From an uncultured Pseudomonadota bacterium (GTDB lineage: Bacteria > Pseudomonadota > Alphaproteobacteria > Rs-D84), in assembly GCA_949290785.1 (NCBI GenBank), contig CASETE010000013.1, forward strand, positions 3,529 to 67,528: a DNA stretch of 64,000 bases, given 5' to 3'. The notes under the pieces were generated by a model. That model saw nothing but the letters and a program-made list of their open reading frames with translations, did not search any database and was not told where the DNA came from. Position 1 is the first letter of the stretch. Each line of letters starts with the position of its first letter. Positions 2,373 through 52,658 of the stretch are shown here, one piece after another. The translations under genes were made by a program, and so were the position numbers.

Positions 2373-2882
2373 ATGAAAATGTTTGGATTTGGCAAAAAGA
2401 AAAAAGAAAAAATTAGTCCTATTGAAAACGAACAAATAACGGATAAAGAATTACAACAGTTGGAAGAAAAAATACCCAGCGGCATGAAAGAAACCGCGCA
2501 ACGTATGATGTCAGGTCAATTTGACATGAATGATATGTTGGCGCAGTTAAAACAAATTAAAAAAATGAGTAATTTTAGCGGATTGTTAAAAATGGTGCCC
2601 GGTATGTCTGGTGCGGTATCCGCTATGAAAGAAAAAATTAAAGACGGCAGTGTGGACGCGCAGATAAAAATATTAGAGGCTATGACCGCCGCTGAACGGG
2701 CCGAGCCGGAAAAAATATTTGCCAACGCAAAAGCAAGAATTGCAGAAACCGCAGGTTGTACGGTTCGCGACGTTGAACATATGATAAAGCAATATACTAA
2801 AATGCGCCAGCAGATGGCAATGATTCAAAAAATGGGCGGTATGGAAGCAGTTATGGAAAAAATGAGGAAGCAAGGAGTATAA
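2373..2882 (+). CDS. Stand-alone SRP54/Ffh M-domain-like protein (no NG GTPase domain)
   Basis: 169 aa. FDMNDMLAQLKQIKKM, KMVPGM, MTAAERAEPEKI, ARIAETAGCTVRDVEHMIKQY and a Met-rich tail resemble the Ffh M domain as remembered. AGGAG at 2367-2371 favours the second ATG (2379) as the true start. Confidence 0.7.
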   Translation: MKMFGFGKKKKEKISPIENEQITDKELQQLEEKIPSGMKETAQRMMSGQFDMNDMLAQLKQIKKMSNFSGLLKMVPGMSGAVSAMKEKIKDGSVDAQIKILEAMTAAERAEPEKIFANAKARIAETAGCTVRDVEHMIKQYTKMRQQMAMIQKMGGMEAVMEKMRKQGV

Positions 2883-2888
2883 TAAAAT

Positions 2889-3179
2889 ATGGGCCGACGA
2901 AGGTTGATAAACCTAAAAAATAGCGTAAAAAAATTATTAGATAAAAATCCTATCGGCATAGAAGCACCGTTTTCTTGTTACAGAAAGACAGACGATAACA
3001 AACGTCGCTTATTAGGGTTCGTTGTGGTTGTAAAATATAGGTATAGAGCGAATAAAGAACAGGTGTTTGTCGTCAAAAATCAATGCCCAGAAGATAGGAA
3101 GATTGCTTTAAGAAATGCTATTAATTTTTATAACTTGATTAAGGAGCAGATTTATAAGGATAATCAACATGAACATTAA
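2889..3179 (+). CDS. Small basic hypothetical protein, divergent member of a 3-gene paralogous set
   Basis: 96-aa ORF starting 6 nt after the previous stop. Its 3' end overlaps the next ATG by 11 nt. The LLGFVVVVKYRYRANKEQVF core resembles the strand-rich core of the next two genes. Confidence 0.55.
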   Translation: MGRRRLINLKNSVKKLLDKNPIGIEAPFSCYRKTDDNKRRLLGFVVVVKYRYRANKEQVFVVKNQCPEDRKIALRNAINFYNLIKEQIYKDNQHEH

Positions 3180-3444
3180 TTTTAAAAAATTATTTGATTG
3201 GGAAATTAAATGCGTTACAGAACCGTATCGCTTTGTTGATTTTGAAACGGGGGCAAAAGGCTTTAAGGTCAGGGTGCTTTACGTTCATCACGGTTGTAAA
3301 GACAAGTGTTTTGATACGAAAAATCAGCAATCGTGGGCTTGTTATTCGTCAGCGGAAGCGGCGGCTAAAGCATATTATCGTTGTATGATGGAAAAGTATT
3401 TGCATCAGCAAGAGAAAAAAGGGCAGAAAATATATGGTCGTTAA
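3169..3444 (+). CDS. Small hypothetical protein, paralogue 2 (possible AP2/integrase-type DNA-binding fold)
   Basis: 91 aa. It shares NFKK-FDW-IK-V-EP and G(F/Y)(K/Q)V-V-Y-HHG-K-K-F with the next gene. It overlaps both neighbours by 11 nt. Confidence 0.6.
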   Translation: MNINFKKLFDWEIKCVTEPYRFVDFETGAKGFKVRVLYVHHGCKDKCFDTKNQQSWACYSSAEAAAKAYYRCMMEKYLHQQEKKGQKIYGR

Positions 3445-3688
3445 CTTTAAAAAGATTTTTGATTGGTCTATTAAAAGCGTATCCGAGCCGGTGTACGTTT
3501 GGAATGGGGCTAATTATACTGGGTATCAGGTCGTTGTAGAATATAAACATCACGGTACGAAAAAGAAGTTTTTTTATTTAATGGATAAAAAATATAATTT
3601 TGGTAGATGGGGTAATGCCGGGTTCGTGGCAAGTGAATACGCGCAGAAAATGAAACAAAAGCAGAAAAATAGAGATAAAATAAGATAA
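3434..3688 (+). CDS. Small hypothetical protein, paralogue 3
   Basis: 84 aa. MVVNFKKIFDWSIKSVSEP...GYQVVVEYKHHGTKKKFF parallels the preceding gene. Its stop lies 2 nt before the rlmE ATG. Confidence 0.6.
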   Translation: MVVNFKKIFDWSIKSVSEPVYVWNGANYTGYQVVVEYKHHGTKKKFFYLMDKKYNFGRWGNAGFVASEYAQKMKQKQKNRDKIR

Positions 3689-4350: not shown

Positions 4351-4412
4351 TTGTATTAATTTTTCAAATATGATAAAATACGTGTAAGTTGATATTATTG
4401 GCAGAGAGAAAT

Positions 4413-4718
4413 ATGAAAAAAGTATTTTACTGTCTATGGTTTTGTGTTGTGTGCATTTTGGGTTTGTTCCAGCCTGCTTATTGTGATTTGACTTCCAAGG
4501 CTTATGTCGGATATGTTGTCGCCGCCAAAGAAGACATATCAAATAAAGTAACTAATTTTGAGGGTGCAAACGCAACAGATACAAAGTATCCCAGTGCGCT
4601 GGCAGTAAAAACGGAACTTGGCACCAAGGTTGATACCGGTGCAGACGCCATCCAAACAATGCAAGGTAAATATACTGTGTCTGGTACTTTATACGTTCCA
4701 ACACCGCCCTTGCCATAA
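4413..4718 (+). CDS. Small secreted protein (101 aa), possible partner of the giant repeat protein
   Basis: The ATG at 4413 gives the signal peptide MKKVFYCLWFCVVCILGLFQPAYC. A KYPSALAVKTELGTKVD motif is echoed in the N-terminus of the next protein. The listed TTG at 4389 is less likely. Confidence 0.6.
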   Translation: MKKVFYCLWFCVVCILGLFQPAYCDLTSKAYVGYVVAAKEDISNKVTNFEGANATDTKYPSALAVKTELGTKVDTGADAIQTMQGKYTVSGTLYVPTPPLP

Positions 4719-4749
4719 GTATAGGTATTTTTGTAATATTATAACGAAG

Positions 4750-7700
4750 ATGTTAAAACGAATCGTTCGTAGTTTTTTTATTATGTTATTTTTACCGTGT
4801 GCTTGTTGGGGGGCGGTGGCGGTTAATGTGGACTATATTCATTCTTTGATCAGGCGCGATTGGGGTGTTGATATTCCTTATTATCCAAGCGCGGTAAATC
4901 AAATTGCGAATGTAGAGTATTTGTTAAAGGTGGTTGATAAAACAAACGCCTTGTTAAACGGTACCGCTACGACAAGTTACGGTACAGACGAACATTACGC
5001 TACTAAGCAGGCGGTTGACACGGTTGCGACAATTGATGCGGTGGACAGGTTAATCGTCATAGAACCAGAATTTTTCGTAAAAACCACATCGGATACAACG
5101 AATTTTTCTTTCATAATAAGCGCGGCAGGTATTTATTCTATTGATTGGGGAAATTATAAAGAAAGAATAGTTAAAACAGATACAACGCCAATCATATATA
5201 GCCACGATTATAATACCGCAGGTACATATACAATCGGCATTGGTGGTCAGGCAAATAATTATTCAACAGACAGCACGACGGCTGCGGTATCTTTTAAAGC
5301 CAATACGAACATTGCGGGTATTTCGGGCAGTTTGGGCGCTATATTCGGTACATTAGAAAACGGTGCACAGCCTGTTTTCTATCAAACGTTTGGTGGTTGT
5401 ACAAATTTATCAAGTACCATACCAGAAACTTTATTTTCTGGCGTCAGCGGTACACCGATTAAGTATATGTTTTATGGTTTATTTGAGGGTTGTACCAAGT
5501 TAACGGGCGAAATTCCGGCAAATTTATTCTCTGGTTTAAGGGGCGAACCTGGGAAAGCAATGTTTCAAAATACGTTTAGCGAATGCGCTTCGCTATCGGG
5601 GGCGATACCGGAAAGATTGTTTGGTGGAATATCGGGTGCGCCGGCTTCGCATATGTTTTCACAAACTTTTTATAATTGTTCTGGTTTGACTGGTCCCATA
5701 CCCGAAAATTTGTTTGGTTTAATAAGCGGTAATCCTGCGCCTTATATGTTTTATGCGACTTTTAATGGGTGCTCTAAGTTGAACGGTGAAATTCCTGGGG
5801 CTTTGTTTGCAGGGGTAAACGGCGCTCCTGCGGAGTTTATGTTTCAAGGACTTTTTGCTAATTGTAATAGGTTAACTGGCAGTATACCGGAAACGTTATT
5901 TGCTGGCGTTCAGGGGGCGCCCGCAGAGTCAATGTTTCGTAGCACTTTTTATAATTGTTCTTCGCTGTCTGGCGGTTTGTCGGCGCGGCTGTTTGCTGGT
6001 ATTTCTGGCACGCCCGCCAAGGATATGTATTATCAGACGTTTTACGGTTGTTCCGGATTGACAGAGAATTTGCCGAGTAATGTATTCGGCTCTATCGTCG
6101 GAAGACCGGCAGAGGGTATGTATTACAGCACGTTTTATAATTGTATAAGGCTAACAGGTAAAATACCCCAAGGGTTGTTCGGGGACTTGACAGACACGCC
6201 TGCAACAAATATGTTCAGCCAGACTTTTTATAATTGTAACAAACTAGATGGATTGTCTGCGCGTATGCCAGATGGCAGATTCTTGTACGATGTTTACGGG
6301 CGCGATTTGGATTACGGGTTGAACATGTATCGTAACGCGACAGGATTGCAAGAGTATCCTTTTATACCAGTAAAGTGGGGCGGCTTGGGCGTAGAACCAA
6401 AATTCACGGTAACAACGACGTCAGATACGAAAACTTTTTCTTTCAAAATCAGTGCCCAAGGGGTGTTCTATATAGATTGGGGTGACGGTAACTATGAGAC
6501 AATCAATAAAAGCGATACTAACGATACGACATATACCCATGTATATGATGCTGCAGGCAGTTATGAAATCGGAATCGCGGGAACAGCCAGAAATTATTCG
6601 GAAAACGAACAGTTCGCCGCAATAAGTTTTTATGCAAATCAAAATGTTGCAGGTATTTCGGGCAGTTTAGGTGCTATATTTGGCACGTTATCAGACGGCT
6701 TGCAGCCACGTTTTAGGTCTACGTTTGGTGGGTGTACGAATTTAACCGGAACAATACCAGAAGAATTATTCAGTGGTATTACGGGACAACCAACCAGTTT
6801 CATGTTCACCGGATTATTTGATTCGTGTTCAAGGTTAACCGGCACAATACCGGAAAGGCTGTTTTCAGGTTTGTCGGGTGTTCCTACGGAATCTTTGTTC
6901 GCGATAACGTTTCGTGCGTGTTCTTCTTTGGAGGGCTCTATACCGGAAAGGTTGTTCAGCGGCATATCCGGAAAGCCTACGTTAGATTTATTCAGGTCTA
7001 CATTTGAAAGTTGTACTGGGTTGTCGGGCTCAATACCAGCACGGTTGTTTTCGGGCATTTCTGGTGCGCCCGCAGAGAATATGTTTATGGGGACGTTTTT
7101 TGATTGCTCTGGCTTGACGGGTTCTATACCCGAAGGGCTATTTGGTGGGATTTATGGTCAACCGGCACCGGGAATGTTTATGGTTACTTTTGAAAGATGC
7201 GCAAGGTTACAAAATCAAATTCCAGAACGATTGTTCGCCGGTATATCCGGTGCGCCGGCGCCAAGAATGTTTCGCGGAACGTTTTCACAATGTGGAAAAC
7301 TAACAGGGCCTTTGCCTGACAACTTGTTTTCTGGTATATCGGGCGCGCCCGCAGAAGATATGTTTATGGGGACGTTTTATAGTGATATTGGCATTGACGG
7401 TGATATTCCCGTTGGATTTTTCGGAAATCTAACTTCTGCACCCGCGTCAGGCATGTTTGTTGAAACGTTTATGAATTGTAATCGTTTAAGCGGTCCTTCT
7501 GCGCGTACATCAAACGGCGATTTCTTGTATGACATTTACGGACGCGATTCGGATTACGGGCTGGATATGTATAAGGACGCAGTTAATCTGGACGATTATG
7601 AATTTATTCCGAAAAAGTGGGGCGGGTTGGGGCGCGTGCCGGCAGAGTTCGTCGTTACAACAACGCCAGACACAACGGAGTTTTCGGTTAATATTGCTGC

Positions 7701-9915
7701 CAAGGGCGATTTCACTATTGATTGGGGTGACGGCACCGTAGACGAAATAACGCAAACCGTCGTTACAAAAAAGACTTATTCGCATACGTACAGCGCGGCG
7801 GGCAGTTATTCTGTTGGTTTGTCGGGACAGGCAACAGCATATACGACATCTAATACAAGCGTGGTAAGTTTTTCAGAATCCACAAGTGTGGCGGGTATAT
7901 CGGGCAGTTTGGGCGCGATATTCGGCACTTTATCAGACGGTTCGCAACCAAGGTTTTATAGGACGTTTTATAACCACACAAATTTACATGGTGAAATACC
8001 CGCAACGTTATTTGACGGGATAACGGGGCAACCTGTAACGGCAATGTTTTATAGTACTTTTGAAGGTTGTACGGGGTTAAGCGGGGAAATCCCATCGGGA
8101 TTGTTTGCTGGTTTGGACGGGACGCCGACCATACAATTGTTTTTTCATACTTTTGAGGGTTGCACAGGTTTAAGTGGGAATATACCATCGGGGTTATTTG
8201 CGGGAATACAAGGATTGCCGGCTGCGAATATGTTTGCGGGGACCTTTCTAAATTGCACTGGGTTGAACGGAACAATACCGTCGGGTTTGTTTTCCGGTAT
8301 TTCTGGTGCGCCAGCAGCGAACATGTTTAATTCTACGTTTGCCGGTTGCACGGGTTTATCTGGTGCGATACCGTCAACATTGTTTTCCGGCATATCTGGT
8401 GCGCCAGCCACGAACATGTTTACAGGGACTTTTTCGGGGTGCAGTGGTTTAACGTCAATACCGTCAAACCTGTTTGCAGGAATTCAAGGTGCCCCGGCAT
8501 CATATATGTTCAAGGAAACATTCGCGAATTGTACGGGGCTGACGACAATTCCGGGGGCGTTGTTTGCAGGGATTCAGGGTGCGCCAAATACTTATATGTT
8601 TCAAGGGACTTTTTCTGGGTGCAGTAATTTGATTGCACTGCCGGATGACTTATTTGCCGGCATTTCTGGGGCGGGCAAGGGGTATATGTATGACGCAACA
8701 TTTAAAAATTGTACAGGGTTGACGGGAACCATACCTGTGGGATATTTTGGTGATTTAACAGAAACCAAGGCAACGTATATGTTCAGGGAAACTTTTTTGA
8801 ATTGCGCCGGTTTGACGGGTGATTCTGCGCGTTTACTGGACGGTCGGTATTTATATGATGTGTATGGACGTACTGGGACGTACGGGCGAAATATGTATCA
8901 GGGCGCGACGGGTTTGTACGATTATCCATTTATACCGACAGCCTGGGGTGGTTTAGGGCTGGAACCAGAGTTTTATATAACAACAACCCCGGACACAAGC
9001 GTATTTTCAATTTATTTAGGTGCGGCCGGTAATTTCACGATTAACTGGGGTGACGGTAATACAGAAAACATAACCAAGACAGATACCGCCAGCACAAGTT
9101 ATTCGCACAACTATGATACAGCGGGCGAATATTTGATAACGTTATCTGGGAAAGCCACAGAATATTCTGCGCCAAGTTCAACGACACCCGGTGTAATTAC
9201 TTTTGGATATAGTTCTAAAATTGCGGATATTGAAGGCAGTTTGGGACAGATATTTAGTACGTTGGCAGATGGTTCGCAACCAAAATTTGCGAATACGTTT
9301 GCTTATGCTAGTAATTTAACAGGGACGATACCACAATATTTATTTCATAACATTCGTGGCGAACCTGTACCATATATGTTTTATAATACTTTTTCGGGGT
9401 GCAGTGGTTTAACTGGCAGTATACCATCAGATTTATTTGCAGGAATCCAGGGTGCGCCCGCAGAAAGTATGTTTGCCAGCACATTTCGTGGCTGCAGTGG
9501 TTTAACGGGCAGTATACCATCAGATTTATTTGCAGGAATCCAGGGCGCACCCGCAGAAGGTATGTTTTTTTCTACATTTGGGGCCTGTACGGGTTTAACT
9601 TCGTTACCAGCGGGGTTGTTTGATGGTATTTCCGGTGATTGTGCAACAGGCATGTATGCAGGATGTTTTAGTGGATGTACGGGGTTAAGCGGACAAATCC
9701 CGTTGGGCTTTTTCGGTGATTTAACAGAGGTTGGTGCAAATGGTGCATTTGAAGGCACTTTTATGCGTTGTGGTCCCGGTTTAACAGGACCTTCGGCGAG
9801 ATTACCAGACGGTCGGTATTTGTATAATGTCTATGATGGCGGAACTGGCGCCGGAATGTATAGAGATGATACCGGGTTAACTGATTATAGCAGCATACCA
9901 GCTAATTGGAAGTAA
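4750..9915 (+). CDS. Giant secreted modular surface protein: 4 x (PKD-like head + 31-aa LRR/DUF285-like repeats)
   Basis: The ATG at 4750 gives the Sec signal peptide MLKRIVRSFFIMLFLPCACWGAVA. Length is 1721 aa. Four super-modules each carry IDWGDG...Y.H.Y..AG.Y and 6-10 copies of C.GLTG.IP..LF.GI.GAP...MF..TF. Confidence 0.85.
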   Translation: MLKRIVRSFFIMLFLPCACWGAVAVNVDYIHSLIRRDWGVDIPYYPSAVNQIANVEYLLKVVDKTNALLNGTATTSYGTDEHYATKQAVDTVATIDAVDRLIVIEPEFFVKTTSDTTNFSFIISAAGIYSIDWGNYKERIVKTDTTPIIYSHDYNTAGTYTIGIGGQANNYSTDSTTAAVSFKANTNIAGISGSLGAIFGTLENGAQPVFYQTFGGCTNLSSTIPETLFSGVSGTPIKYMFYGLFEGCTKLTGEIPANLFSGLRGEPGKAMFQNTFSECASLSGAIPERLFGGISGAPASHMFSQTFYNCSGLTGPIPENLFGLISGNPAPYMFYATFNGCSKLNGEIPGALFAGVNGAPAEFMFQGLFANCNRLTGSIPETLFAGVQGAPAESMFRSTFYNCSSLSGGLSARLFAGISGTPAKDMYYQTFYGCSGLTENLPSNVFGSIVGRPAEGMYYSTFYNCIRLTGKIPQGLFGDLTDTPATNMFSQTFYNCNKLDGLSARMPDGRFLYDVYGRDLDYGLNMYRNATGLQEYPFIPVKWGGLGVEPKFTVTTTSDTKTFSFKISAQGVFYIDWGDGNYETINKSDTNDTTYTHVYDAAGSYEIGIAGTARNYSENEQFAAISFYANQNVAGISGSLGAIFGTLSDGLQPRFRSTFGGCTNLTGTIPEELFSGITGQPTSFMFTGLFDSCSRLTGTIPERLFSGLSGVPTESLFAITFRACSSLEGSIPERLFSGISGKPTLDLFRSTFESCTGLSGSIPARLFSGISGAPAENMFMGTFFDCSGLTGSIPEGLFGGIYGQPAPGMFMVTFERCARLQNQIPERLFAGISGAPAPRMFRGTFSQCGKLTGPLPDNLFSGISGAPAEDMFMGTFYSDIGIDGDIPVGFFGNLTSAPASGMFVETFMNCNRLSGPSARTSNGDFLYDIYGRDSDYGLDMYKDAVNLDDYEFIPKKWGGLGRVPAEFVVTTTPDTTEFSVNIAAKGDFTIDWGDGTVDEITQTVVTKKTYSHTYSAAGSYSVGLSGQATAYTTSNTSVVSFSESTSVAGISGSLGAIFGTLSDGSQPRFYRTFYNHTNLHGEIPATLFDGITGQPVTAMFYSTFEGCTGLSGEIPSGLFAGLDGTPTIQLFFHTFEGCTGLSGNIPSGLFAGIQGLPAANMFAGTFLNCTGLNGTIPSGLFSGISGAPAANMFNSTFAGCTGLSGAIPSTLFSGISGAPATNMFTGTFSGCSGLTSIPSNLFAGIQGAPASYMFKETFANCTGLTTIPGALFAGIQGAPNTYMFQGTFSGCSNLIALPDDLFAGISGAGKGYMYDATFKNCTGLTGTIPVGYFGDLTETKATYMFRETFLNCAGLTGDSARLLDGRYLYDVYGRTGTYGRNMYQGATGLYDYPFIPTAWGGLGLEPEFYITTTPDTSVFSIYLGAAGNFTINWGDGNTENITKTDTASTSYSHNYDTAGEYLITLSGKATEYSAPSSTTPGVITFGYSSKIADIEGSLGQIFSTLADGSQPKFANTFAYASNLTGTIPQYLFHNIRGEPVPYMFYNTFSGCSGLTGSIPSDLFAGIQGAPAESMFASTFRGCSGLTGSIPSDLFAGIQGAPAEGMFFSTFGACTGLTSLPAGLFDGISGDCATGMYAGCFSGCTGLSGQIPLGFFGDLTEVGANGAFEGTFMRCGPGLTGPSARLPDGRYLYNVYDGGTGAGMYRDDTGLTDYSSIPANWK
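5062..6393 (+). repeat. Super-module 1 of the giant protein gene (about 444 codons, 10 short repeats)
   Basis: Starts EPEFFVKTTSDTTNFSF and ends FIPVKWGGLGV. Confidence 0.8.
6394..7638 (+). repeat. Super-module 2 (about 415 codons, about 9 short repeats)
   Basis: Starts EPKFTVTTTSDTKTFSF and ends FIPKKWGGLGRV. Confidence 0.8.
7639..8961 (+). repeat. Super-module 3 (about 441 codons, about 10 short repeats)
   Basis: Starts PAEFVVTTTPDTTEFSV and ends FIPTAWGGLGL. Confidence 0.8.
8962..9912 (+). repeat. Super-module 4 (about 317 codons, about 6 short repeats)
   Basis: Starts EPEFYITTTPDTSVFSI and ends SSIPANWK. Confidence 0.8.
9400..9567 (+). repeat. Near-identical 93-bp tandem duplication inside module 4
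   Basis: tgcagtggtttaac(t/g)ggcagtataccatcagatttatttgcaggaatccaggg... occurs at 9400 and 9493. I count about 4 mismatches in 75 nt. Confidence 0.85.
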
Positions 9916-9916: not shown

Positions 9917-9943
9917 AAAAAACCGTCATAACGACGGTTTTTA
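9917..9943. terminator. Bidirectional Rho-independent terminator between the giant gene and rnhA
   Basis: aaaaaaccgtc-ataac-gacggtttttt; stem flanked by an A-run and a T-run. Confidence 0.75.
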
Positions 9944-22478: not shown

Positions 22479-23192
22479 ATGAGACTTGATCAAGAATTAG
22501 TTAATAGAAATATTTATCCAACTCGTGCTAAAGCTGTGGCGGGAATAAAAAGCGGCTTGGTGCGGGTAAATGGTGTTGTCGCCAGTAAGGCAAGTCAAAA
22601 TGTTTCGGATAAAGACGATGTGATGGGAGATAAATTGCCTTATATGTCTGGTCGTGGTAGTTTGAAGTTGAAATATGCTTTGGATTTTTTTAAAGTAAAT
22701 CCAAATGGTTATGTTTGTTTGGATGTTGGTGCGAGTACAGGCGGTTTTACAGAAGTTTTATTAAAGCGTGGTGCTAAAAAAGTGATTGCTGTTGATGTTG
22801 GAACTGGGCAGTTGGTGCCAGAATTATATAACAATCCGAAAGTGGTGGCACTGGAAAAAACAGACGTTCGTAAATTGGTGCCTTTTGAAAAGGTTGATTT
22901 GATTGTTGTTGATGTTTCTTTTATTTCGTTGGTTAATATTGCGGACAGTTTATTACGTTGGAATGCTGATAAGATGATATTGCTTGTAAAGCCTCAGTTT
23001 GAGGTAGATAGGGCAATTGCTGCAAAAAATAACGGCGTTATAAAATCTGAATTTGATAGACAGCAAAGTGCGGATAAGGTGAGGAAGTGCTTTGAGGATT
23101 TGGATTTTGTGTGTGCTGGTGTAGTTGAGTCGCCTGTTCGTGGTGGTAGTGGAAATGTAGAATTTTTAATGTATCTTGAAAAAGATATATAA
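22479..23192 (+). CDS. tlyA: TlyA-family rRNA (cytidine-2'-O)-methyltransferase
   Basis: N-terminal S4 domain (RLDQELVNRNIYPTRAKA...I..G.V.VNG) followed by the FtsJ-type motif CLDVGASTGGFTEVLL. Confidence 0.92.
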   Translation: MRLDQELVNRNIYPTRAKAVAGIKSGLVRVNGVVASKASQNVSDKDDVMGDKLPYMSGRGSLKLKYALDFFKVNPNGYVCLDVGASTGGFTEVLLKRGAKKVIAVDVGTGQLVPELYNNPKVVALEKTDVRKLVPFEKVDLIVVDVSFISLVNIADSLLRWNADKMILLVKPQFEVDRAIAAKNNGVIKSEFDRQQSADKVRKCFEDLDFVCAGVVESPVRGGSGNVEFLMYLEKDI

Positions 23193-30078: not shown

Positions 30079-32814
30079 TTATATGCCCAAACCTTCGGGT
30101 AGATTTGTCAATACGGTAGATGTGCCAGTTTGTTGGTCTATGGTTTCACATTGTCCGTCGGCGTTGGCAATACCATTAAATGGGCATACTTGGTTTTGTG
30201 AGCTTACAGGCTTTGTGCACCACTGTTTCGTTGTTGGTTGTGTCGTAGTGCTTGTCCAAGGTTCATAATTATTAGTCAGTGCCAAAGTGTCACAATTTTG
30301 GTCGTTTGCATCTGATGCACTTGTTGTTTGCTTTGGTGCAATTGGTAGCGCCGATACACATTTGGGGCTTTGACCATACTTACTTCTGCGGCCACCGTTT
30401 TCCCAACATAAACAAGCACCCCAAGATTGCGTGTCTACGTTCAAGTCGTAATCGCGTGGGCACATGTTTTCGTTTTCTCCGATAGAATAAATGTCGGTTA
30501 AATCTGGCATACCATTACTGCCCCCGTATTCAGTTGAATTTTCAAAGGTTGCCACGCATAATTCATCTTCTTTATATAGCCCGTCTTTGATAAATTGCAG
30601 TTCTACAAACCGACCCTGCAAGTTAATGCATTGTGTACTTAATATGTCTACGACTTGGTTATAAATTTCTGTCGCTACGCCGGTTGAACGAGGTGTGTGG
30701 TGTGAAAGTACACGTTTTTGACGTACGGTATTTGGTGCCACAGTAACGTCGGATTCTTCTGTCGCAAGTAAGCCATAGCGTCTAAATGTCGTTGTTATAT
30801 CGGTGTCTTCATCGGTTAACAAATAAAATACAGATTCGTTTTGATGCTTGCCCTTGCCTGCGGTTATTACATCAAACCCGCCGAATGCTTTTTCCATCAT
30901 CTCGGGCGAACTGCAAGAGTCAATGCTCTGTAATTGTTTTGCGCATTCTGATACCGGTTTGCTTGTGTCACGATTACCGTTTTCGTCATATTCGTACAAA
31001 GTAAACCATTGTAATGCCTGGCCCTTTTTAAATACACCGCTATATGGATAATAAAAGTTTTCATAGTTTGAACCGCCAAAACTGTCAAAGCACTGTTTGA
31101 CGACAGCCCTGCATGCTGTCAGGGTATCGGTGTCTTTTCTGTTGTTTATATAGTCCGCAATTATGTCACCAGAATTTTCATAAAACATCATGTTGCAAGA
31201 GTCAATATAATCACGGCAAATTTCAGTAGTTAAAGCGACTTTATCGGGTTGTAATAAAATGCTGCTGTCGTCACCTGTTAATTCCTTCATTGCATCCGTC
31301 AGTGCGGCGTCACTGTTTACGTAACACGCAGACACAAAATCAAAGCAGCCTTGTTTGATTTCTTCAACTTTTGATTTCTGGGCATAGTATATTGCCAGCA
31401 AGGCTTTATCAAGATATTCTTCCCAGACTACATCGGCCTGCTCTGTACACTTGTCCAATGCTGGTTCGGCGAATTTTTTTACGCGTTTTTCAAAGTTTTG
31501 CACAAAAGATTTATTAGATGTAACCTTGGATAATTTTTGTTGTGCAGCATCAACGCCGTCTGCAAATTTTAATAAATTTCCCAGTTCATAGAACTTTTCA
31601 ACACCCGCGATTGGTTTGCCCGTTGATACGTCTATGAATTCACCGTTATCCAAACATTTATGATAACCTGCCCCGCAGACCTCTTCGCTGAGTATCGCGG
31701 CTTCTACATTATTTACACACGTGGTAATGTCGTCAGAATTATGCTTTTGTCTGTTTTCTACGCGTGCCAAGTCCAACAGCGCGCTACTTTCACGGACCGC
31801 CGATTTCATTTCTTTTTGTTGCTGTTCTATGGCAGATTCAACGGTGTTACAGTCTTGTTCTATTGCCATTAAGTAAGCGGTTATCGCGCGTTGTAATTGC
31901 GCGTCTGTACAATCTGATTTGACGGCCTGACGACATTGCGGATAAACGGCGTTATATAAATTTTGACCGTTATAAGTGGCGATGATTTGGCCGGAATCGG
32001 CGGTGCCAAACGCGTTAACCGCATCAAACGATAAATTAATGCTGTTTAAGTCCGAATATTTGCCGCCGACGAAAGTGTCTTCGCCACGAATGGAATTCAT
32101 GATTGCTTGTAACAACGCCTTTGATGCAGACGTGTCAGAAGTTAAGGCGTTTTCCCCTTCGGATGCCGTTTTCATGGCCAATGCTTGCGCCGCCGTCATG
32201 CCGACGACATCAAGGTTTTCTGTAAATTCTGTCAGTTGGTTCCCAGCATCTTGCATTACATTGCGTACCTCGGTCAGTTCAAACACGCGGTTGCTGCAAG
32301 AACAACGTCTGTAATCATCGTTTTTTAAACTGCAAAATTGATCCATACATGTGAAATAAGCGTTTTTACATTGTTCGTATGCCGCCCCCGTGCGAGTTTC
32401 TGTTATTATGTCAGCAGTTTGATCTATTGCGGCCCTGGACACGTTTTGCGCTTGGGGGCGCGATGTAACGTTATTGGTTTTCGGCGTAATTGCAGAACGA
32501 GAAACGGTTGTAGATGCACTTCGCGATGCGTTAGTTGCGTTTGTTTTTGTGACAACGTTTTGTCTTTGAGCAGTTGTGCGTATTGCAGTGCGGCCAGCAC
32601 CAGCAGATATAGTGTTTGTTGCGTTTCGTGTAGAAATATTTGTGTTGTTCGTTCTGTTGGTTGTTGCGGTTCGTGCCGTTACATTTGCGACCGTGTTCGT
32701 TCCGCGTTCTGTAACGCTTGTTTGACGATTGGTCGCGTTTTCATCACGCACGGCAGCCGTTGCATAGGTCGCGCAAATCAAAGCTGAAAATATAAAAAAC
32801 AGAATTTTTTTCAT
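30079..32814 (-). CDS. 911-aa secreted Cys-rich protein with a T/N/R/A-rich low-complexity N-terminal region
   Basis: Signal peptide MKKILFFIFSALICATYATA, then about 130 aa of TN/RT-rich repeats, then a Cys-rich body (many paired Cys). No family recognised. Confidence 0.7.
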   Translation of the reverse strand: MKKILFFIFSALICATYATAAVRDENATNRQTSVTERGTNTVANVTARTATTNRTNNTNISTRNATNTISAGAGRTAIRTTAQRQNVVTKTNATNASRSASTTVSRSAITPKTNNVTSRPQAQNVSRAAIDQTADIITETRTGAAYEQCKNAYFTCMDQFCSLKNDDYRRCSCSNRVFELTEVRNVMQDAGNQLTEFTENLDVVGMTAAQALAMKTASEGENALTSDTSASKALLQAIMNSIRGEDTFVGGKYSDLNSINLSFDAVNAFGTADSGQIIATYNGQNLYNAVYPQCRQAVKSDCTDAQLQRAITAYLMAIEQDCNTVESAIEQQQKEMKSAVRESSALLDLARVENRQKHNSDDITTCVNNVEAAILSEEVCGAGYHKCLDNGEFIDVSTGKPIAGVEKFYELGNLLKFADGVDAAQQKLSKVTSNKSFVQNFEKRVKKFAEPALDKCTEQADVVWEEYLDKALLAIYYAQKSKVEEIKQGCFDFVSACYVNSDAALTDAMKELTGDDSSILLQPDKVALTTEICRDYIDSCNMMFYENSGDIIADYINNRKDTDTLTACRAVVKQCFDSFGGSNYENFYYPYSGVFKKGQALQWFTLYEYDENGNRDTSKPVSECAKQLQSIDSCSSPEMMEKAFGGFDVITAGKGKHQNESVFYLLTDEDTDITTTFRRYGLLATEESDVTVAPNTVRQKRVLSHHTPRSTGVATEIYNQVVDILSTQCINLQGRFVELQFIKDGLYKEDELCVATFENSTEYGGSNGMPDLTDIYSIGENENMCPRDYDLNVDTQSWGACLCWENGGRRSKYGQSPKCVSALPIAPKQTTSASDANDQNCDTLALTNNYEPWTSTTTQPTTKQWCTKPVSSQNQVCPFNGIANADGQCETIDQQTGTSTVLTNLPEGLGI

Positions 32815-32919
32815 CTCTTATATTTTATCTTAGCAAAATACAGAAATTTAGAGCAAGCACAAATTAATAAAATTTTTTACGACGAAAAGCGAAAAAATAT
32901 TTCTGATGCGATTTTCTTG

Positions 32920-32948
32920 TTGCAAAATGCGATAAGTTGCGTTATTAT
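32920..32948 (+). promoter_or_regulatory. Sigma70-like promoter of the tRNA cluster
   Basis: TTGCAA (32920-32925), 17-nt spacer, TATTAT (32943-32948), about 15 nt before the first tRNA. Confidence 0.55.
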
Positions 32949-32962
32949 GCACAAAGTTTTGT

Positions 32963-33049
32963 GGGCATATGGCGGAATTGGTAGACGCGCTAGTTTCAGG
33001 TACTAGTGGTAGCGATACCTTGGAAGTTCGAGTCTTCTTATGCCCACCA
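32963..33049 (+). tRNA. tRNA-Leu (anticodon CAG)
   Basis: Acceptor GGGCATA/TATGCCC, D arm GCG-GAATTGGTAGA-CGC, anticodon loop ttCAGgt, long variable arm, T loop TTCGAGT, encoded CCA. Confidence 0.92.
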
Positions 33050-33056
33050 TAAGAGT

Positions 33057-33132
33057 GGGGTTGTAGCTCAGTTGATAGAGCGCTACGTTCGCATCGTAGA
33101 GGTCGTGGGTTTGAGTCCCATCAGCTCCACCA
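33057..33132 (+). tRNA. tRNA-Ala (anticodon CGC), non-canonical A19/U56
   Basis: G3:U70 acceptor GGGGTTG/CAGCTCC, anticodon loop ttCGCat, D loop AGTTGATA, T loop TTTGAGT, encoded CCA. Confidence 0.88.
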
Positions 33133-33147
33133 GTTTTAAAGGTTGCA

Positions 33148-33234
33148 GGGGATATGGCGGAATGGTAGACGCTGAGGACTTAAAATCCTTTGGTTATTGC
33201 AACCGTGTGGGTTCAAGTCCCACTATCCCCACCA
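33148..33234 (+). tRNA. tRNA-Leu (anticodon UAA)
   Basis: Acceptor GGGGATA/TATCCCC, anticodon loop ctTAAaa, long variable arm, T loop TTCAAGT, encoded CCA. Confidence 0.92.
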
Positions 33235-33241
33235 CCTATTT

Positions 33242-33262
33242 AACCGCCTTATGCGGTTTTTT
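33242..33262 (+). terminator. Hairpin + T-run between tRNA-Leu(UAA) and tRNA-Val
   Basis: aaccgc-cttat-gcggtttttt, ending 8 nt before tRNA-Val. Confidence 0.55.
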
Positions 33263-33270
33263 ATATTTCG

Positions 33271-33347
33271 GGATGTGTAGCTCAGTTGGTTAGAGCGCTT
33301 CGTTCACATCGAAGAGGTCGTTGGTCCGAGTCCAATCACATCCACCA
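33271..33347 (+). tRNA. tRNA-Val (anticodon CAC), non-canonical C55
   Basis: Acceptor GGATGTG/CACATCC, anticodon loop ttCACat, T loop TCCGAGT, encoded CCA. Confidence 0.85.
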
Positions 33348-33569
33348 CAAAAATTTTATATGCTTGATTTTTCCTTGGATTTATGAATTACCCAGCCGAT
33401 ATTCGGGAACTAAATCCGCGCGATATTCCTGATTTTGATATTTTATATATGACTTGTTTAGAAACACAGGTTATTCGTTCAATATAAAGTAATAAACGAG
33501 AAATCTTTGTAGAGATTTTATTTATTTATAAATATTGGCTTGTCTTTTATAAAGTTTGCATTCTAAGAT

Positions 33570-33595
33570 AAAAACGCCCGGTTGGGCGTTTTTTT
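33570..33595 (-). terminator. Terminator of the 33.6-37.7 kb minus-strand operon (ACGCCC-stem family)
   Basis: aaaaacgccc-ggtt-gggcgttttttt; the TAA stop of the 105-aa gene sits in the arm. Confidence 0.75.
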
Positions 33596-33911
33596 ATCTT
33601 AGTCCTTTTGAGCGGCAGCACGCCGACGCGGCACTGCGCCAATCTGAATATTGTTTCCCGGGGGTACGCAAATCTTGCCACGGCTGCCAGCCGTTACATT
33701 TCTTGTTTTCACCTGTGCCCGTACATTTGACGTAACGGCGCAAAGAACACGTTTGATCGGAAATTTTTCCCGTATCGGTTGTGCACTTTACGACGACGTT
33801 TTGATTGCGTGCGTCGTTTCTGCCCAATTCTTTTGATGATAATAATTGATATGCGTTAGCATTGCCGATTGTTAAGAATATTGCTGATATAAATAATAAT
33901 AAACGTTTCAT
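33594..33911 (-). CDS. 105-aa secreted Cys-rich protein
   Basis: Signal peptide MKRLLLFISAIFLTIGNANA; 8 Cys in the mature part. Last gene of the operon. Confidence 0.6.
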   Translation of the reverse strand: MKRLLLFISAIFLTIGNANAYQLLSSKELGRNDARNQNVVVKCTTDTGKISDQTCSLRRYVKCTGTGENKKCNGWQPWQDLRTPGKQYSDWRSAASACCRSKGLR

Positions 33912-33986
33912 ATCTTTCCCCTTGTATAATTAGATTATAAAAATTTTTAAATCAAAAAACAATGGGTAAATGTTCGGCTTGTTTTT

Positions 33987-35837
33987 TTATTCAGACGTAG
34001 TCCAAGGTTGGTCGTTCATTATCAAATAATACAAAGATGCATCTGGCATGTCGGGATTTCTTATTACCGGTCTTACGACATAAATGTCAACATTGCAAGG
34101 ATGTGTGTTTTTGTCTTCTTGGGTTTGTTGTAAGTAAAAATGAAATTTATTCGCAAAATCCATTGCTTGTAAATAAGCCGCATCGTCGTCTTCCGGATTA
34201 ACAGAATCACCCTGCCACATCAACCACATACCATAATTGACAACATTTTCTTGTCCTTGCAAGTCGTCGGCAGAAAGTAGTGTTAACGGTTTAAAATCAA
34301 TATCGTTTGTAAAAGTACCTGTACTTGTTTCTGTAAAGTCGTACATATCACCCAAGAATACAAGCGCACCATATAAAAAACCGCCCATTTCTTCCATCTT
34401 TGTAAGTTTACCTAGGTTGCTCATTGTTGATTGAAACAGCCAGTCGCGTATACGCCCCGATTTCATACTGCTGCGCGCAACCGATGCGCTGCTGCGTAAT
34501 AATCTTCCGCCGGTATTTGCCGCTTTGAATGCACGCCATGTTCTGGCAATTATGTTTCCCCTTTGTTTAATGCGTATACCGCGCAAAGCGTTCCTGTATT
34601 TGTTTAATTCAGAAAACGTTTTTGACTGTTCTTGATATTTTTTGACATCATCGGTTTTCGCCAGTTCTTGTTGTGTCTTTTGTAACTTAGACAGTTCGTC
34701 GCTTTTTGCAGTGCGCAATTTATCAAAATCATCAAGGCTTTTAAAGTCGTCCGCATTCTTACCAAGTTTCATTAATTCGTCAGAATATGTTTTTTCTGCT
34801 GTCTTTAAATCTTCGGTCAATCGTGCAGTTTTGGATGCGTCGGCACCTTTCATGCTGTCTCGGATTGTATTTATTTGACGGTATGCATCGCGCGCCTTAT
34901 CAATGGAACTCAGTTCTTGTGTGGCTTTGGATACATCACCACCAATTTTAATATATTTAACAACGGATTCGGATTGCCGCAATGTTTTTAGTGATGCACT
35001 CAGGTTTTTTAATGTCCTGGACGCACGTGTCGCTTTTGTTATCCCCGTTAAAACTGCCCCGCCACCAGCGGTTGCAACTGTTATTACTACATCCAGGCCA
35101 ACCTCGGCATAGCCTATCCAAGAAAGATTTGCATCGCCCGCAACATAATAGTCGTTTGAATCGTCTTCTATATTTACGGTTTCGTGCATTGCCAAATTTA
35201 TTATATCATCGTCAGACGCAAGTGCGCTTTTACTTGTACAGTTATAACCTTTTGGATAAATAGAATCAATATTATCATTAATCCATTTCATTGATATAGT
35301 GTTGTTTTTATCCGGACCAACAAATTCGTCCAACGCACCTGCCTGCACGACCATTATCGCGTACCATGCTGGGTCGGTGTTTGTCCAGATTGACGCATCG
35401 TTCATGTCGCCTATTCTGGGACTTGGTGTGGCTTCTGTTATGGTTCGCTTTTCAGTTAACATTAAATGTTGTTTAAGTACTTTTGGTTGCGTTTCATAGT
35501 TAACTATAACCTGCCTTCCACCAGGGAAATTATACACAATTGGCAAGAATTTTATTGATTCATCTTCTGGTATGTTTTGTAATTCTGGGCAGTTTAATAC
35601 GTTTTGCAAAACGGTTTTTTCTTGGAAGGTTGAATAAATCCATTGTCTAATTTCTGTTTCTGGCGACGTTTCTGAAACCTGTCCCGCAGAGGCATAAAGC
35701 GCATTTTCAAGAACCTGAGTCGCACATTGTGTATCATCGTATGGTATATTGCCTGTTGTAATATCGGGCGTAATATCTGCTGAAAACGCAGGAGTTGAAA
35801 CAATTGTTAAAAGTAAAATAATCAAATATTTAAACAT
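33987..35837 (-). CDS. 616-aa exported membrane-anchored protein with a central coiled coil, function unknown
   Basis: Signal peptide MFKYLIILLLTIVSTPAFSA, two internal hydrophobic segments (VGLDVVITVATAGGGAVLTGI; MGGFLYGALVFLG) and a K/D/E-rich coiled coil between them. Confidence 0.7.
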   Translation of the reverse strand: MFKYLIILLLTIVSTPAFSADITPDITTGNIPYDDTQCATQVLENALYASAGQVSETSPETEIRQWIYSTFQEKTVLQNVLNCPELQNIPEDESIKFLPIVYNFPGGRQVIVNYETQPKVLKQHLMLTEKRTITEATPSPRIGDMNDASIWTNTDPAWYAIMVVQAGALDEFVGPDKNNTISMKWINDNIDSIYPKGYNCTSKSALASDDDIINLAMHETVNIEDDSNDYYVAGDANLSWIGYAEVGLDVVITVATAGGGAVLTGITKATRASRTLKNLSASLKTLRQSESVVKYIKIGGDVSKATQELSSIDKARDAYRQINTIRDSMKGADASKTARLTEDLKTAEKTYSDELMKLGKNADDFKSLDDFDKLRTAKSDELSKLQKTQQELAKTDDVKKYQEQSKTFSELNKYRNALRGIRIKQRGNIIARTWRAFKAANTGGRLLRSSASVARSSMKSGRIRDWLFQSTMSNLGKLTKMEEMGGFLYGALVFLGDMYDFTETSTGTFTNDIDFKPLTLLSADDLQGQENVVNYGMWLMWQGDSVNPEDDDAAYLQAMDFANKFHFYLQQTQEDKNTHPCNVDIYVVRPVIRNPDMPDASLYYLIMNDQPWTTSE

Positions 35838-35841
35838 AAAT

Positions 35842-37227
35842 TTATTTTTTATTTTGTATATTTGTGTATTCGTCTTTGGTTAAATAACAATATTGAATAA
35901 GACTGATATTCGGTTGAAAATACACTTTGTTGTCATCATTTATATCTAGTTTTTTACTATTTGCATTAATTGTATTTATATTACATTTATTTATAGCCAA
36001 TGGTTGCCAATAGTCGCGTCTATTTGTTACGCATACAAACATTTTTGGTTCTTGTAAGGGTGTTTCTTCAAATACAGTTTCCGCAGGCGCATAAATAACA
36101 GTACCTTGTGTGCAATAGTCGTTATCACATTCAAATACATTGCCTGGTAAATTGCTTATATTATTTGTGTTTGAAGATTGACGTCGTGCTTCGTTATAAG
36201 TCGTTGAATTGCTGTATAAAAATTCATTGTCATCAACATCTTGGAGTATGTTTAAGTATACAGATGTTCTTCCGCATAAGCCAGGATTTTTGCTTTGGGT
36301 TACTATAATTGGTTTTTTATCTTGTGATGAATCAGAAGCGGTATCGCTTGTTGAAGAAGAGTTCGTGGAATTTTTGTTATCTTTATTTGATTTATATTGT
36401 TCTTTTGTCTCTTCGTTCCCTTTTTGTTTTGTGTCTTCTTTTTTTGCTTCACCGTTATTAGAAGATGCATCAGATTGTGCGGATGTAGTGTCGTCAATTA
36501 TGTTGTTAATGGGTTTATAGGCCGATTTATCTTTGTACGGTGCATAACCAGACGCTAAGACCTGTTGTTTTTGTTCAAATGATAAATCCGCGAAAGTCGC
36601 GGGAAAATCTGTTTTTATTACTTGATTAGAACCCGCAGAGTTTTGTGCCTGCAATCGTTTAAGTTCTTCTTCACGGGCACGCATCTCGGTCTGCCAATTT
36701 GATTTCTGCGGTGGCGATGCGACATCTGTATTATTTTTTTTGTTGTTCGTTACATCAGGATTTGGAACAAGTGCTTCCGGAAAAGCAACCGCCTGCCCTG
36801 TTGGCGCGGCGTTGGAATTGTTTTTCTTGTAGGTTTCAAACGTCGGTTGTATATAAGCCGCACACGGCGTTACAAAATTATGTCCCGGTAAACTGGCCAA
36901 TTGAACGGTAATGGTTGGGTTTATATCCGTTAAACTGATATCCATACAATTGTTTCTGCTTGCACAATATGATTCTATCAATGCGCTGACAACCCGTTGA
37001 CAATCAGCCGTTGTAACGTCAGGACCCTGTACATATACTGGTACAGGCATGCGCTGATTATACGGACTGTCCGGCGTCCAAAATGGATTGGATGAATAGT
37101 TTTGTACGTTCTGGATTTGACCGTATTTAGAAAAAGGCTGATTCGGCGTCGGAAATGTCGTCGCGTCCGACGTACAAGGCATTAGAAAACAAATCCCTAA
37201 TAAAACGAAATAAAACCGCATTTTCAT
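35842..37227 (-). CDS. 461-aa secreted protein: two Cys-containing domains joined by an S/N/K/D-rich linker
   Basis: N-terminal hydrophobic leader MKMRFYFVLLGICFLMPCTSDA. The stop lies 4 nt before the next ATG. No family recognised. Confidence 0.7.
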   Translation of the reverse strand: MKMRFYFVLLGICFLMPCTSDATTFPTPNQPFSKYGQIQNVQNYSSNPFWTPDSPYNQRMPVPVYVQGPDVTTADCQRVVSALIESYCASRNNCMDISLTDINPTITVQLASLPGHNFVTPCAAYIQPTFETYKKNNSNAAPTGQAVAFPEALVPNPDVTNNKKNNTDVASPPQKSNWQTEMRAREEELKRLQAQNSAGSNQVIKTDFPATFADLSFEQKQQVLASGYAPYKDKSAYKPINNIIDDTTSAQSDASSNNGEAKKEDTKQKGNEETKEQYKSNKDNKNSTNSSSTSDTASDSSQDKKPIIVTQSKNPGLCGRTSVYLNILQDVDDNEFLYSNSTTYNEARRQSSNTNNISNLPGNVFECDNDYCTQGTVIYAPAETVFEETPLQEPKMFVCVTNRRDYWQPLAINKCNINTINANSKKLDINDDNKVYFQPNISLIQYCYLTKDEYTNIQNKK

Positions 37228-37257
37228 TCTCTATCCATTATCCCCGTTTATTTAACA

Positions 37258-51213: not shown

Positions 51214-51306
51214 ATATCCCCCCAACACATACTTGTATTATCAGTAAGATAAAATACCTGTTTAATATTTAATGTTATCATAGAAATTTGTAAAACTTAT
51301 AGCAAC

Positions 51307-52634: not shown

Positions 52635-52658
52635 TTTAGTTTCCTTGTTCGGTTATCA

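Follow-up and report, generated by a model that had tools for sequence, protein, structure and literature searches.

The locus considered here raises a question: what is the very large, internally repetitive protein encoded between rlmE and rnhA-tkt in an uncultured gut bacterium, and what might it do once exported? The window, by which we mean the whole stretch of 64,000 nucleotides (nt) that was analysed (positions 3,529 to 67,528 of contig CASETE010000013.1, assembly GCA_949290785.1), belongs to an Rs-D84 / Candidatus Enterousia-like gut alphaproteobacterium with a reduced genome. Our analysis shows that its largest gene, hereafter the giant gene, encodes an N-terminal helical domain followed by four rigid binding modules, each made of a PKD-like immunoglobulin (Ig)-like head, a solenoid of the leucine-rich repeat (LRR) type and a C-terminal cap. 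The parts of the gene are as follows (aa, amino acids; ORF, open reading frame; HMM, hidden Markov model).

Giant gene, 4750..9915, + strand: 1,721 aa plus stop, from ORF calling.
Signal peptide, 4750..4812, + strand: aa 1-21, read from the sequence, with the AxA sites of homologues at the same position.
N-terminal domain, 4813..5061, + strand: aa 22-104, three strand-plus-helix units (VNVDYIHSLI, IANVEYLLKVVD, YATKQAVDTV...).
Super-module 1, 5062..6393, + strand: aa 105-548, head 5056-5319, nine units 5398-6234, cap 6247-6390 (HMM census).
Super-module 2, 6394..7638, + strand: aa 549-963, head 6388-6654, eight units 6733-7476, cap 7489-7632 (HMM).
Super-module 3, 7639..8961, + strand: aa 964-1404, head 7633-7896, nine units 7975-8802, cap 8815-8958 (HMM).
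Super-module 4, 8962..9912, + strand: aa 1405-1721, head 8956-9228, five units 9307-9765, terminal cap 9784-9912.

The ORF spans 4618-9915 on the + strand and is, as a preliminary description of the window had stated, the longest one present when read from the ATG at 4750 (the next encodes 911 aa). This start is backed by a 94%-identical protein of 1,722 aa from another sample, which begins three codons earlier (MTKMLKR...), and by the N-termini of more distant homologues, which without exception are signal peptides of the classical type with an AxA site a few residues before [IV]ANVEY[IV]H. The N-terminus of the giant protein, MLKRIVRSFFIMLFLPCACWG followed by AVAV, combines a basic n-region with a hydrophobic core, and the signal peptide proposed for it is upheld by the homologues' AxA sites at the same place. 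In the AlphaFold2 model this region forms a helix (2-13) followed by a stretch of low predicted local distance difference test score (pLDDT) at 16-20. We infer from the sequence that the giant protein and the product of the small gene upstream of it (the partner gene, described below) are probably exported by Sec. The N-terminal domain is modelled with helices at 27-38, 55-70 and 91-101 (pLDDT about 90), and an HMM finds this 80-aa domain in 59 of the 121 family members.

The division into four super-modules, with the borders originally proposed, was recovered by HMMs built from the four heads, four caps and 25 units that the preliminary description implied. These models place the heads at aa 103-190, 547-635, 962-1049 and 1403-1493 and the caps at aa 500-547, 914-961, 1356-1403 and 1679-1721, the terminal cap ending in ...IPANWK. 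The unit model finds 31 units, distributed 9+8+9+5 over the modules, and the spacing between them is exactly 31 aa in 24 of 27 intervals. The 31-aa period noted at first is thus borne out, and the range of 6-10 units per module given with it has to be corrected to 5-9. The pattern C..L..(.)[IL]P..[LVF]F occurs 26 times in the giant protein and at most once in any of 1,000 shuffles. Within the unit the conserved positions are C1, L4, G6, I8, P9, L12, F13, G15, I16, G18, P20, M24, F25, T28 and F29; the residues between them vary. At the DNA level, Tandem Repeats Finder detects only the youngest copies, with a 93-nt period at 8253-8422 (module 3) and at 9392-9599.

Short-read metagenome bins are known to suffer from mis-assembly at repetitive genes, and a long frame of this kind might also be a pseudogene in decay. 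Neither explanation fits what was found in other assemblies. The same four-module gene lies in the same context in an ENA scaffold (159 kb) and a Logan contig, collinear with the window at 97.1% nt identity over 17.9 kb; it is in these two independent assemblies that the 1,722-aa product is encoded. The locus is also present in the GTDB species representative CASFOK01 (CASFOK010000021; 95.3% over 8.6 kb), where the contig ends inside module 4. DNA identity between the modules is only 53-60%, and no exact repeat in the gene exceeds 38 nt, so that an assembler working on short reads would not mix the modules up. The 5.2-kb frame is uninterrupted, the orthologue of a related species (L003) is likewise intact with four modules, and the closed long-read genome of another (OZ007020.1, 958,618 bp) carries an intact two-module orthologue at the same locus. 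We regard an artefact or a pseudogene as having a negligible chance of being the explanation.

Comparison of strains points to the end of the gene as its most changeable part. Against strain L001, in bins of 300 nt, the gene interior (5701-8400) is 99-100% identical, and the last module behaves differently:

Strain-variable stretch of module 4, 9001..9900, + strand: 92, 82 and 67% identity to L001 in successive 300-nt bins.

These are the lowest values in 18 kb. One allele of module 4 is common to L001 and the species representative, and another occurs in the window; the latter includes a 92%-identical tandem duplication of 93 nt, that is, of one unit, at 9392-9567.

The predicted structure agrees with this anatomy. 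An AlphaFold2 model of aa 1-548, calculated with 76 family sequences, has a pLDDT of 94.5 and a predicted template modelling score (pTM) of 0.88. Super-module 1 is modelled at pLDDT 95-99 as a beta-sandwich at 108-193 (six strands at 108-170, plus 188-193) followed by a solenoid that is regular and non-helical and has two short beta-bridges in every 31 residues. In each module the PKD-like head packs onto the N-terminal end of the solenoid. Both folds that the modelling was expected to reveal are predicted, and the general picture of a secreted modular protein that combines an Ig-like domain with a repeat solenoid is supported. For the heads, the Pfam model PF00801 reaches 23.5 bits on the giant protein, exactly its gathering score, in three stretches, the best being the head of module 3 (aa 973-1036), and PF18911 (PKD_4) remains at 21.5 bits, below its threshold of 27. 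The assignment of the heads to the PKD type is thus marginal: it holds by the PF00801 score and the predicted beta-sandwich, and the PKD_4 model leaves it borderline.

The placement of the repeat is less direct. By eye it had been likened to BspA/DUF285 repeats, and the curated models LRR_5 (PF13306, gathering threshold 27.7 bits) and DUF285 (PF03382, 25 bits) give no match to the giant protein at E<=1; NCBIfam likewise yields no match of the DUF285 or 26-residue-repeat type. The likeness stands through the homologues and the fold. LRR_5 scores 68 bits in two homologues, P0033 (1121-1236) and P0061 (1763-1902), on the same residues that are covered by the unit HMM of the giant protein, and these two align with it over their full length at E-values of 1e-282 and 1e-234. 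In a third relative, P0090, a DUF285 match of 162 bits sits on repeats recognised by the same unit HMM. Across the family the repeat period forms a continuum of 28-31 aa (31 aa in 1,044 of 2,056 spacings), and the members recognised by Pfam are those with units of 28-29 aa. Since these shorter-unit relatives match LRR_5 or DUF285 on repeats that the unit HMM of the giant protein also recognises, the 31-aa unit is a derivative of the BspA/TpLRR-DUF285 repeat with a longer loop, now too far diverged for the curated models, and by homology the giant protein belongs to the BspA/DUF285 repeat superfamily. What sets it apart is the longer period that escapes the models, the head-solenoid-cap super-module, the distinct N-terminal domain and the conserved partner gene.

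The family to which the giant protein belongs is large, uncharacterised and restricted to one lineage. The homologue search returned 245 proteins at E<=1e-5, with E-values down to 0 and identities of 26-55%; all named relatives come from metagenome-assembled genomes (MAGs) labelled Alphaproteobacteria or Candidatus Enterousia, and NCBI calls them "hypothetical" or "leucine-rich repeat protein". Among the 120 homologues listed, most carry PKD or PKD_4, nine LRR_5 and six DUF285; Flg_new and Ephrin_rec_like, which are typical of extracellular proteins, also occur. The sources of the samples include goat, sheep, water buffalo, yak, roe deer, chicken and wild mouse, as well as samples labelled Hadza.

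The four-fold repetition of a whole module, which had been thought unusual, is ordinary in this family, because 22 of the 121 members have exactly four modules and 113 of the 121 have two or more. Counted by heads, the number ranges from one to eight, and three is the commonest: one in 8 proteins, two in 31, three in 51, four in 22, five in 7, six in 1 and eight in 1. The proposed comparison of module number between genomes was also informative. The order rlmE-[partner]-[giant]-rnhA-tkt is kept as a syntenic block in related species, and at this position there are four modules in the window, four in L003 (1,548 aa), two in L008 (the closed genome) and one, with 16 units, in L009; in another genome several family genes stand in tandem there.

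No other family members were found in the 64-kb window, and, among the 79 distinct loci returned, at least 21 are paralogues that lie in a single MAG, JAAVBP01 ("Mgla_MAG_35-bin_11"; L010-L025, L030, L038, L039, L043, L046, L063 and L068), which is a large share for a genome of that size class. These paralogues carry the N-terminal domain. All of those examined have several hundred non-coding bases upstream and no small partner, so their organisation differs from that of the partner-giant locus in the window.

This leads to the second gene of the locus, whose surroundings are summarised here.

Partner gene, 4413..4718, + strand: 101 aa with a signal peptide (ORF and sequence).
Promoter-like site ATGATA-17-TATTAT with TG extension, 4370..4398, + strand: upstream of the partner gene, predicted by consensus scan only.
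Bidirectional intrinsic terminator, 9918..9942, no strand assigned: common to the giant gene and the convergent rnhA (scan of both strands).

The small secreted protein described upstream of the giant gene is confirmed by the ORF and its sequence. It contains LTSKAYV, one unit of about 45 aa (KEDISNKV...TDTKYPSALAVK) and the C-terminal motif QTMQGKYTVSGTLYVPTPPLP. Only 31 nt separate it from the giant gene, the scan finds no terminator between the two, and a terminator follows the giant gene (hairpin of -12.4 kcal/mol, z = -3.9); sequence features thus support the view that the two genes probably form an operon. The terminator is perfect, AAAAACCGTC-ATAAC-GACGGTTTTT, in an intergenic space of only about 25 nt between the giant gene and rnhA.

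The partner has no match in Pfam, NCBIfam or PHROG and belongs to no curated family, and a word-indexed homologue search with it found only itself. An exhaustive phmmer search found 250 relatives at E<=1e-3 among 1.84e9 representatives. Its counterpart at the syntenic locus of L003, a protein of 172 aa with two copies of the 45-aa unit, is 49% identical (E 6e-21). From an alignment (A3) of 21 small relatives and from the 50 partner ORFs found in the loci, the architecture of the partner family was derived as a signal peptide, [IV]ASxxYV, zero to n units (KEDxSNKVTxLxxxSTDxQYPSAxAV) and QT[ML]AGxYTVxGxLxVPTPPLP. The partner of the window fits this pattern, of which the C-terminal part may be written more loosely as QT[ML]xGxYxVxGxxxVPTxPLP.

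It had been suggested that the two genes form a unit because motifs are common to their N-terminal parts. YPSA[LV] is indeed literally present in both, and the overall similarity does not rise above chance: BLASTP of the partner against the first 100 aa of the giant protein gives E=4.1, the N-domain HMM scores 2.7 bits on the partner, hhalign gives a probability of 0.2%, and the partner-unit HMM has no significant match in the N-termini of the giant family (best E=0.14, 4.9 bits). A weak match of 18 bits, mostly in the signal peptide, extends to IA[SN]xxY[VI] at the start of the mature chain, and this common start is suggestive only.

The case for a two-gene unit is made instead by conserved adjacency and by synteny in other species. 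According to the partner HMM, a small ORF on the same strand lies directly upstream of 39 of the 73 family genes with enough upstream sequence. In most of these 39 loci, which come from many species, it ends about 65-125 nt before the N-terminal domain (outliers 211, 274 and 568 nt), and its length varies between 65 and 199 aa, with the position kept. In the tandem cassettes L061, L069, L071 and L075, each single-module family gene has its own partner of 65-89 aa (partner-giant-partner-giant), and because every giant-like gene is thus provided with a copy, the arrangement suggests that the pair duplicates as a unit. All this would be surprising if the small gene were a mere neighbour encoding an independent secreted peptide with no functional tie to the giant protein. 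That explanation would fit the 34 of 73 family genes that have no partner, the missing sequence similarity between the two proteins, a promoter-like site at 4710-4739 (consensus scan) that could drive the giant gene alone, and the occurrence of relatives of the partner repeat in many other protein contexts. We consider it possible but rather doubtful.

The wider relatives of the partner raise another possibility, namely that the pair derives from a phage, the giant gene being the receptor-binding or tail-fibre module of a prophage remnant and the partner a fragment of a tail-fibre-like stalk. Large proteins, of up to 3,151 aa, contain as many as 16 copies of the partner unit, and in some of them Pfam recognises PTR, "phage tail repeat like" (at 122.8 bits), or Phage_tail_C (at 25.3 bits, the cutoff being 23.7). 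The best fold matches of the giant protein are also predicted phage proteins. Foldseek against BFVD, whose targets are predicted models and not experimental structures, returned 15 of them at E<=1e-3, among them a "Leucine-rich repeat protein" (E 2.4e-18, template modelling score (TM) 0.52), a "PKD domain-containing protein" (E 1.3e-8) and three proteins named "Bacterial surface protein 26-residue repeat" (E 1.9e-11, 1.3e-7 and 8.1e-4). At the level of predicted models, the giant protein thus shares its fold with proteins annotated as the 26-residue bacterial surface repeat. In one BFVD entry of 538 aa, A0A8S5RYD6 (Myoviridae sp. ctNQV2), a head-plus-solenoid module that is almost the same is predicted (TM 0.52 and 24% identity across 586 columns), and because of this the PKD-plus-long-LRR module may also be used as a receptor-binding device by phages.

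For the locus itself a phage origin is nevertheless very improbable. Virion proteins lack signal peptides, and both proteins have one. The two genes lie between rlmE and rnhA-tkt, in synteny that extends to species about 55% identical in the giant protein, and no phage genes flank them. The partner has no tblastn match in 50,697 phage records; a scan of IMG/VR with the alignment of N-terminal domain plus head gave 40 pattern matches, none confirmed as a relative; and the PHROG matches of the partner, the N-terminal domain and three small upstream ORFs are all insignificant.

What, then, does the exported protein do? LRR solenoids and PKD domains serve as scaffolds for the binding of proteins or glycans, and partner-dependent bacteria with reduced genomes rely on surface adhesins. 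BspA-like proteins mediate adherence in other organisms (PMC6701047, PMC2843621). For these reasons we favour, with moderate confidence, the reading that the giant protein is a multivalent binding protein whose variable solenoid faces bind ligands on another cell, and that the partner helps to anchor or extend it. The protein would be displayed on, or released from, the cell, and its solenoid faces could contact a bacterium, a protist or the host mucosa. Modules in series would provide multivalency or several specificities. New specificities might arise as units and modules are gained or lost, through recombination and through expansion of paralogues. The lineage restriction, the paralogue expansion, the turnover of units and module numbers and the strain-variable last module are observed and speak for the reading as a whole. 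The partner, a secreted protein of a fibre-repeat family, would be co-expressed and would probably help to anchor, assemble or extend the giant protein.

Several results weigh against this reading. In Pfam, NCBIfam and the sequence itself, the giant protein has no lipobox, autotransporter barrel, sorting signal or recognisable outer-membrane route or anchor, and we infer, from the kind of protein that it is, both a role in host interaction or adhesion and the surface exposure and ligand on which such a role depends. The giant protein itself, as said, has no LRR_5 or DUF285 match. Foldseek of the model against the PDB gives no match at E<=1e-3: the best is the LRR of the plant NLR RPP1 (E 0.14, TM 0.18), and the head has no significant Ig or PKD match. 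The family profile finds among PDB sequences only the LRR of plant FLS2 (E 3.5e-5), through the LTGxIP motif; the LRR_5 structure 4fs7 of the Joint Center for Structural Genomics follows at E 0.91. The 34 family genes that have no partner, about half of the 73, are preceded by non-coding DNA and include all examined loci of the most expanded genome, and therefore the partner is not essential to the family. The AlphaFold2 model of the partner monomer is poor (pLDDT 68, pTM 0.28), which would fit, and does not prove, a protein that folds only in an oligomer. Finally, strain mosaicism spans the whole region, including rlmE, the small ORFs and neighbouring housekeeping genes; the variability is therefore not unique to the giant gene, and recombination is general here, with the distal module as the extreme case.

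Some known routes to the surface were considered and rejected. A type V autotransporter adhesin would have a C-terminal beta-barrel translocator, which is absent: there is no Autotransporter or YadA-anchor match in Pfam, and the C-terminus is an LRR cap. An adhesin of the RTX/BAP-like type secreted by a type I system does not agree with the N-terminal signal peptide, nor is there a match to RTX/HemolysinCabind. A lipoprotein was rejected for both proteins, as neither ...FLPCACWG in the giant protein nor ...QPAYC followed by D in the partner fits the lipobox [LVI][ASTVI][GAS]C, and the homologues have AxA sites.

A periplasmic or envelope-bound protein, or one released in soluble form, is another reading of the same data; it would then serve as a scaffold, in the capture of nutrients or ligands, or as an immune-modulating LRR effector. 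The window encodes lpxA, lpxB and an outer-membrane beta-barrel protein, as expected for a diderm cell, yet the giant protein has no recognisable outer-membrane route or anchor, and for this reason such a role keeps some weight. It has only a Sec signal, with no lipobox, barrel, transmembrane anchor or C-terminal sorting domain, and nothing follows the last cap; in Mycoplasma bovis a DUF285 protein has been described as secreted and interacting with host beta-actin (PMC8707762). On the other hand, relatives pair the same modules with the extracellular-type domains Flg_new, Ephrin_rec_like and PKD; the expansion of paralogues, the variation in module number and the strain-variable terminal module are expected of exposed binding proteins; and the presence of a conserved N-terminal domain and of a partner suggests that the protein is attached to something. 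Taken together, we hold a periplasmic or soluble role to be unlikely.

A bolder version of the binding-protein reading, which we offer as no more than tentative speculation, is that the partner and the N-terminal domain of the giant protein assemble into a new attachment appendage of Rs-D84. The partner oligomer would be a stalk or anchor of adjustable length (zero to many 45-aa units) that displays chains of PKD-LRR modules, and an expanded, recombining set of paralogues would decide which host cell is recognised, be it a bacterium, a protist or an epithelium. If this were true, the 31-residue solenoid would be a structurally new class of LRR that has no solved representative.

In its manner of working the giant protein would resemble the BspA/DUF285 surface proteins and, in the pairing of an Ig-like domain with an LRR, the internalins. 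TpLRR units have a length of about 23 aa, and internalins, surface proteins exported by Sec, use the concave face of the solenoid to bind host receptors. With the BspA-like/TpLRR proteins (LRR_5 PF13306; Tannerella forsythia BspA, Trichomonas vaginalis TvBspA) the giant protein has in common the repeat logic ...F..C..L...IP..L...I....F..C, the probable extracellular setting and the dynamics of families with variable repeat numbers and large paralogue expansions, and its homologues match PF13306 at 68 bits on equivalent repeats; a role in adherence is documented for TvBspA (PMC6701047, PMC2843621). It differs in the unit of 31 aa with an extra G-I-x-G-A-P loop, for which the Pfam model is not reached, and in the order of parts, with a PKD-like domain before each solenoid and a specific cap after it, the whole module being concatenated one to eight times in the family. 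The DUF285 (PF03382)/TIGR02167 proteins of Mycoplasma, Listeria and phages share with it the MF..F..C..L signature, the 162-bit match in P0090 on repeats seen by the unit HMM, the predicted fold of phage proteins bearing that name, and the occurrence in host-dependent bacteria with reduced genomes. Here the differences are the period (31 against about 26 aa), the missing lipoprotein anchor, the diderm organism and the super-module of PKD head plus cap.

The internalins of Listeria (InlA/InlB) likewise pair an LRR rigidly with an Ig-like domain as a binding module. In the giant protein, in contrast, the Ig-like domain comes first, so that the order is reversed, the period is 31 and not 22 aa and the LRR class is different, there is no LPXTG or GW anchor, and no search revealed sequence similarity. 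PKD surface proteins (PF00801/PF18911) show the same WGDG...H.Y...G.Y signature, and many homologues of the giant protein score higher; its own match is borderline, with PKD_4 below the cutoff and no significant PDB Foldseek match for the head. A further resemblance is to PamR (NCBIfam NF058578), the RbmA-like terminator or anchor of the Pam pilus in the candidate phyla radiation (CPR) (bioRxiv 10.64898/2026.03.03.709456): a 43-residue stretch of its FnIII-like domain (profile positions 184-226) aligns with each of the four heads. Membership was rejected, as the match reaches 59.9 bits where the 297-position model demands 300, the C-terminal transmembrane helix and the pilus operon are missing, and the lineage is another; the match reflects a common beta-sandwich motif. 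As for the partner, its unit KEDxSNKV...TDxQYPSAxAV is found in tandem in large phage-tail-fibre-like repeat proteins, some with PTR (PF12789) or Phage_tail_C (PF24243), from which the partner differs by its signal peptide and by having no match to a curated model or in phage genomes.

The interest of the locus lies largely in the bacterium that carries it. In the NCBI taxonomy Enterousia is placed in Alphaproteobacteria incertae sedis, and its GTDB order is Rs-D84 (PMC12306168). Genomes of Rs-D84 are for the most part smaller than 1 Mb (with a range of 671-1,611 kb in the set compared) and lack respiration as well as the pathways that make amino acids, nucleotides and lipids, and the bacteria have been proposed to be partner-dependent obligate symbionts or parasites (PMC12306168). 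The same study mentions only "hypothetical membrane-bound proteins" and makes no mention of the giant-protein family, adhesins, surface proteins or repeats (PMC12306168). A literature search combining Rs-D84 with leucine-rich repeats gave top-ranked matches on the LRR term only, none of them about Rs-D84.

Rs-D84/Candidatus Enterousia is widespread in the guts of animals and humans and is proposed to depend on other cells, and the family described here is an obvious candidate for its means of attachment: it is restricted to the lineage, reaches at least 21 copies in one genome, varies in module number at a syntenic position and is most divergent between strains in the last module. It offers concrete proteins for expression, for use as baits for ligands or hosts, and for structure solving. 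No structure of the 31-aa repeat has been solved by experiment and the current Pfam models LRR_5 and DUF285 miss it, so that the genes are annotated as "hypothetical"; a dedicated profile of this repeat would improve the annotation of Rs-D84 MAGs. Should the giant protein prove to be an ordinary adhesin, the finding would still extend the BspA-like proteins usefully, though without surprise. The locus is a well-delimited candidate attachment system of an enigmatic gut lineage, and no surprise in kind.

The window as a whole is a piece of bacterial chromosome, with tRNAs, RNase P class A, uvrA, rlmE, rnhA, tkt, lpxA, lpxB and gcrA. Upstream of the locus, an ORF of 169 aa at 2373-2882 (+ strand) encodes the signal-peptide-binding M domain of SRP54/Ffh (PF02978, 81 bits) and nothing else; the NG GTPase domain is missing. 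This stand-alone M-domain ORF, which is unusual, also follows uvrA directly in L001, L003, L006, L008 and L009. After it come the three small ORFs already mentioned, in tandem and overlapping, at 2889-3179, 3169-3444 and 3434-3688 (+ strand; 96, 91 and 84 aa), none with a Pfam match or a significant PHROG match. The second and third are clear paralogues (FKK[LI]FDW.IK...HHG.K.K.F), the copy number is three in conspecific strains and two in L003, and the stretch 2889-3688 is among the most strain-variable (85-88% against L006).

Further downstream, at 30079-37731 (- strand) and 38386-40500 (+ strand), large ORFs that match no Pfam family (911, 616, 461 and 704 aa) lie around a tRNA cluster, next to a type IV prepilin peptidase of 157 aa (A24, 37258-37731) and GcrA (37801-38373). 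These ORFs may encode pilus, secretion or surface components of the reduced genome. Between 20000 and 24000 the GC content is 0.29-0.32, against about 0.40-0.45 elsewhere, and there are few long ORFs besides a TlyA-like S4/FtsJ methyltransferase (22479-23192). An ORF of 349 aa at 50179-51228 (- strand), adjoining a two-component system at 51354-53297, matches the glycine-rich domain of ALK/LTK weakly, at 25.2 bits where the cutoff is 24.5, and may encode another secreted glycine-rich protein.

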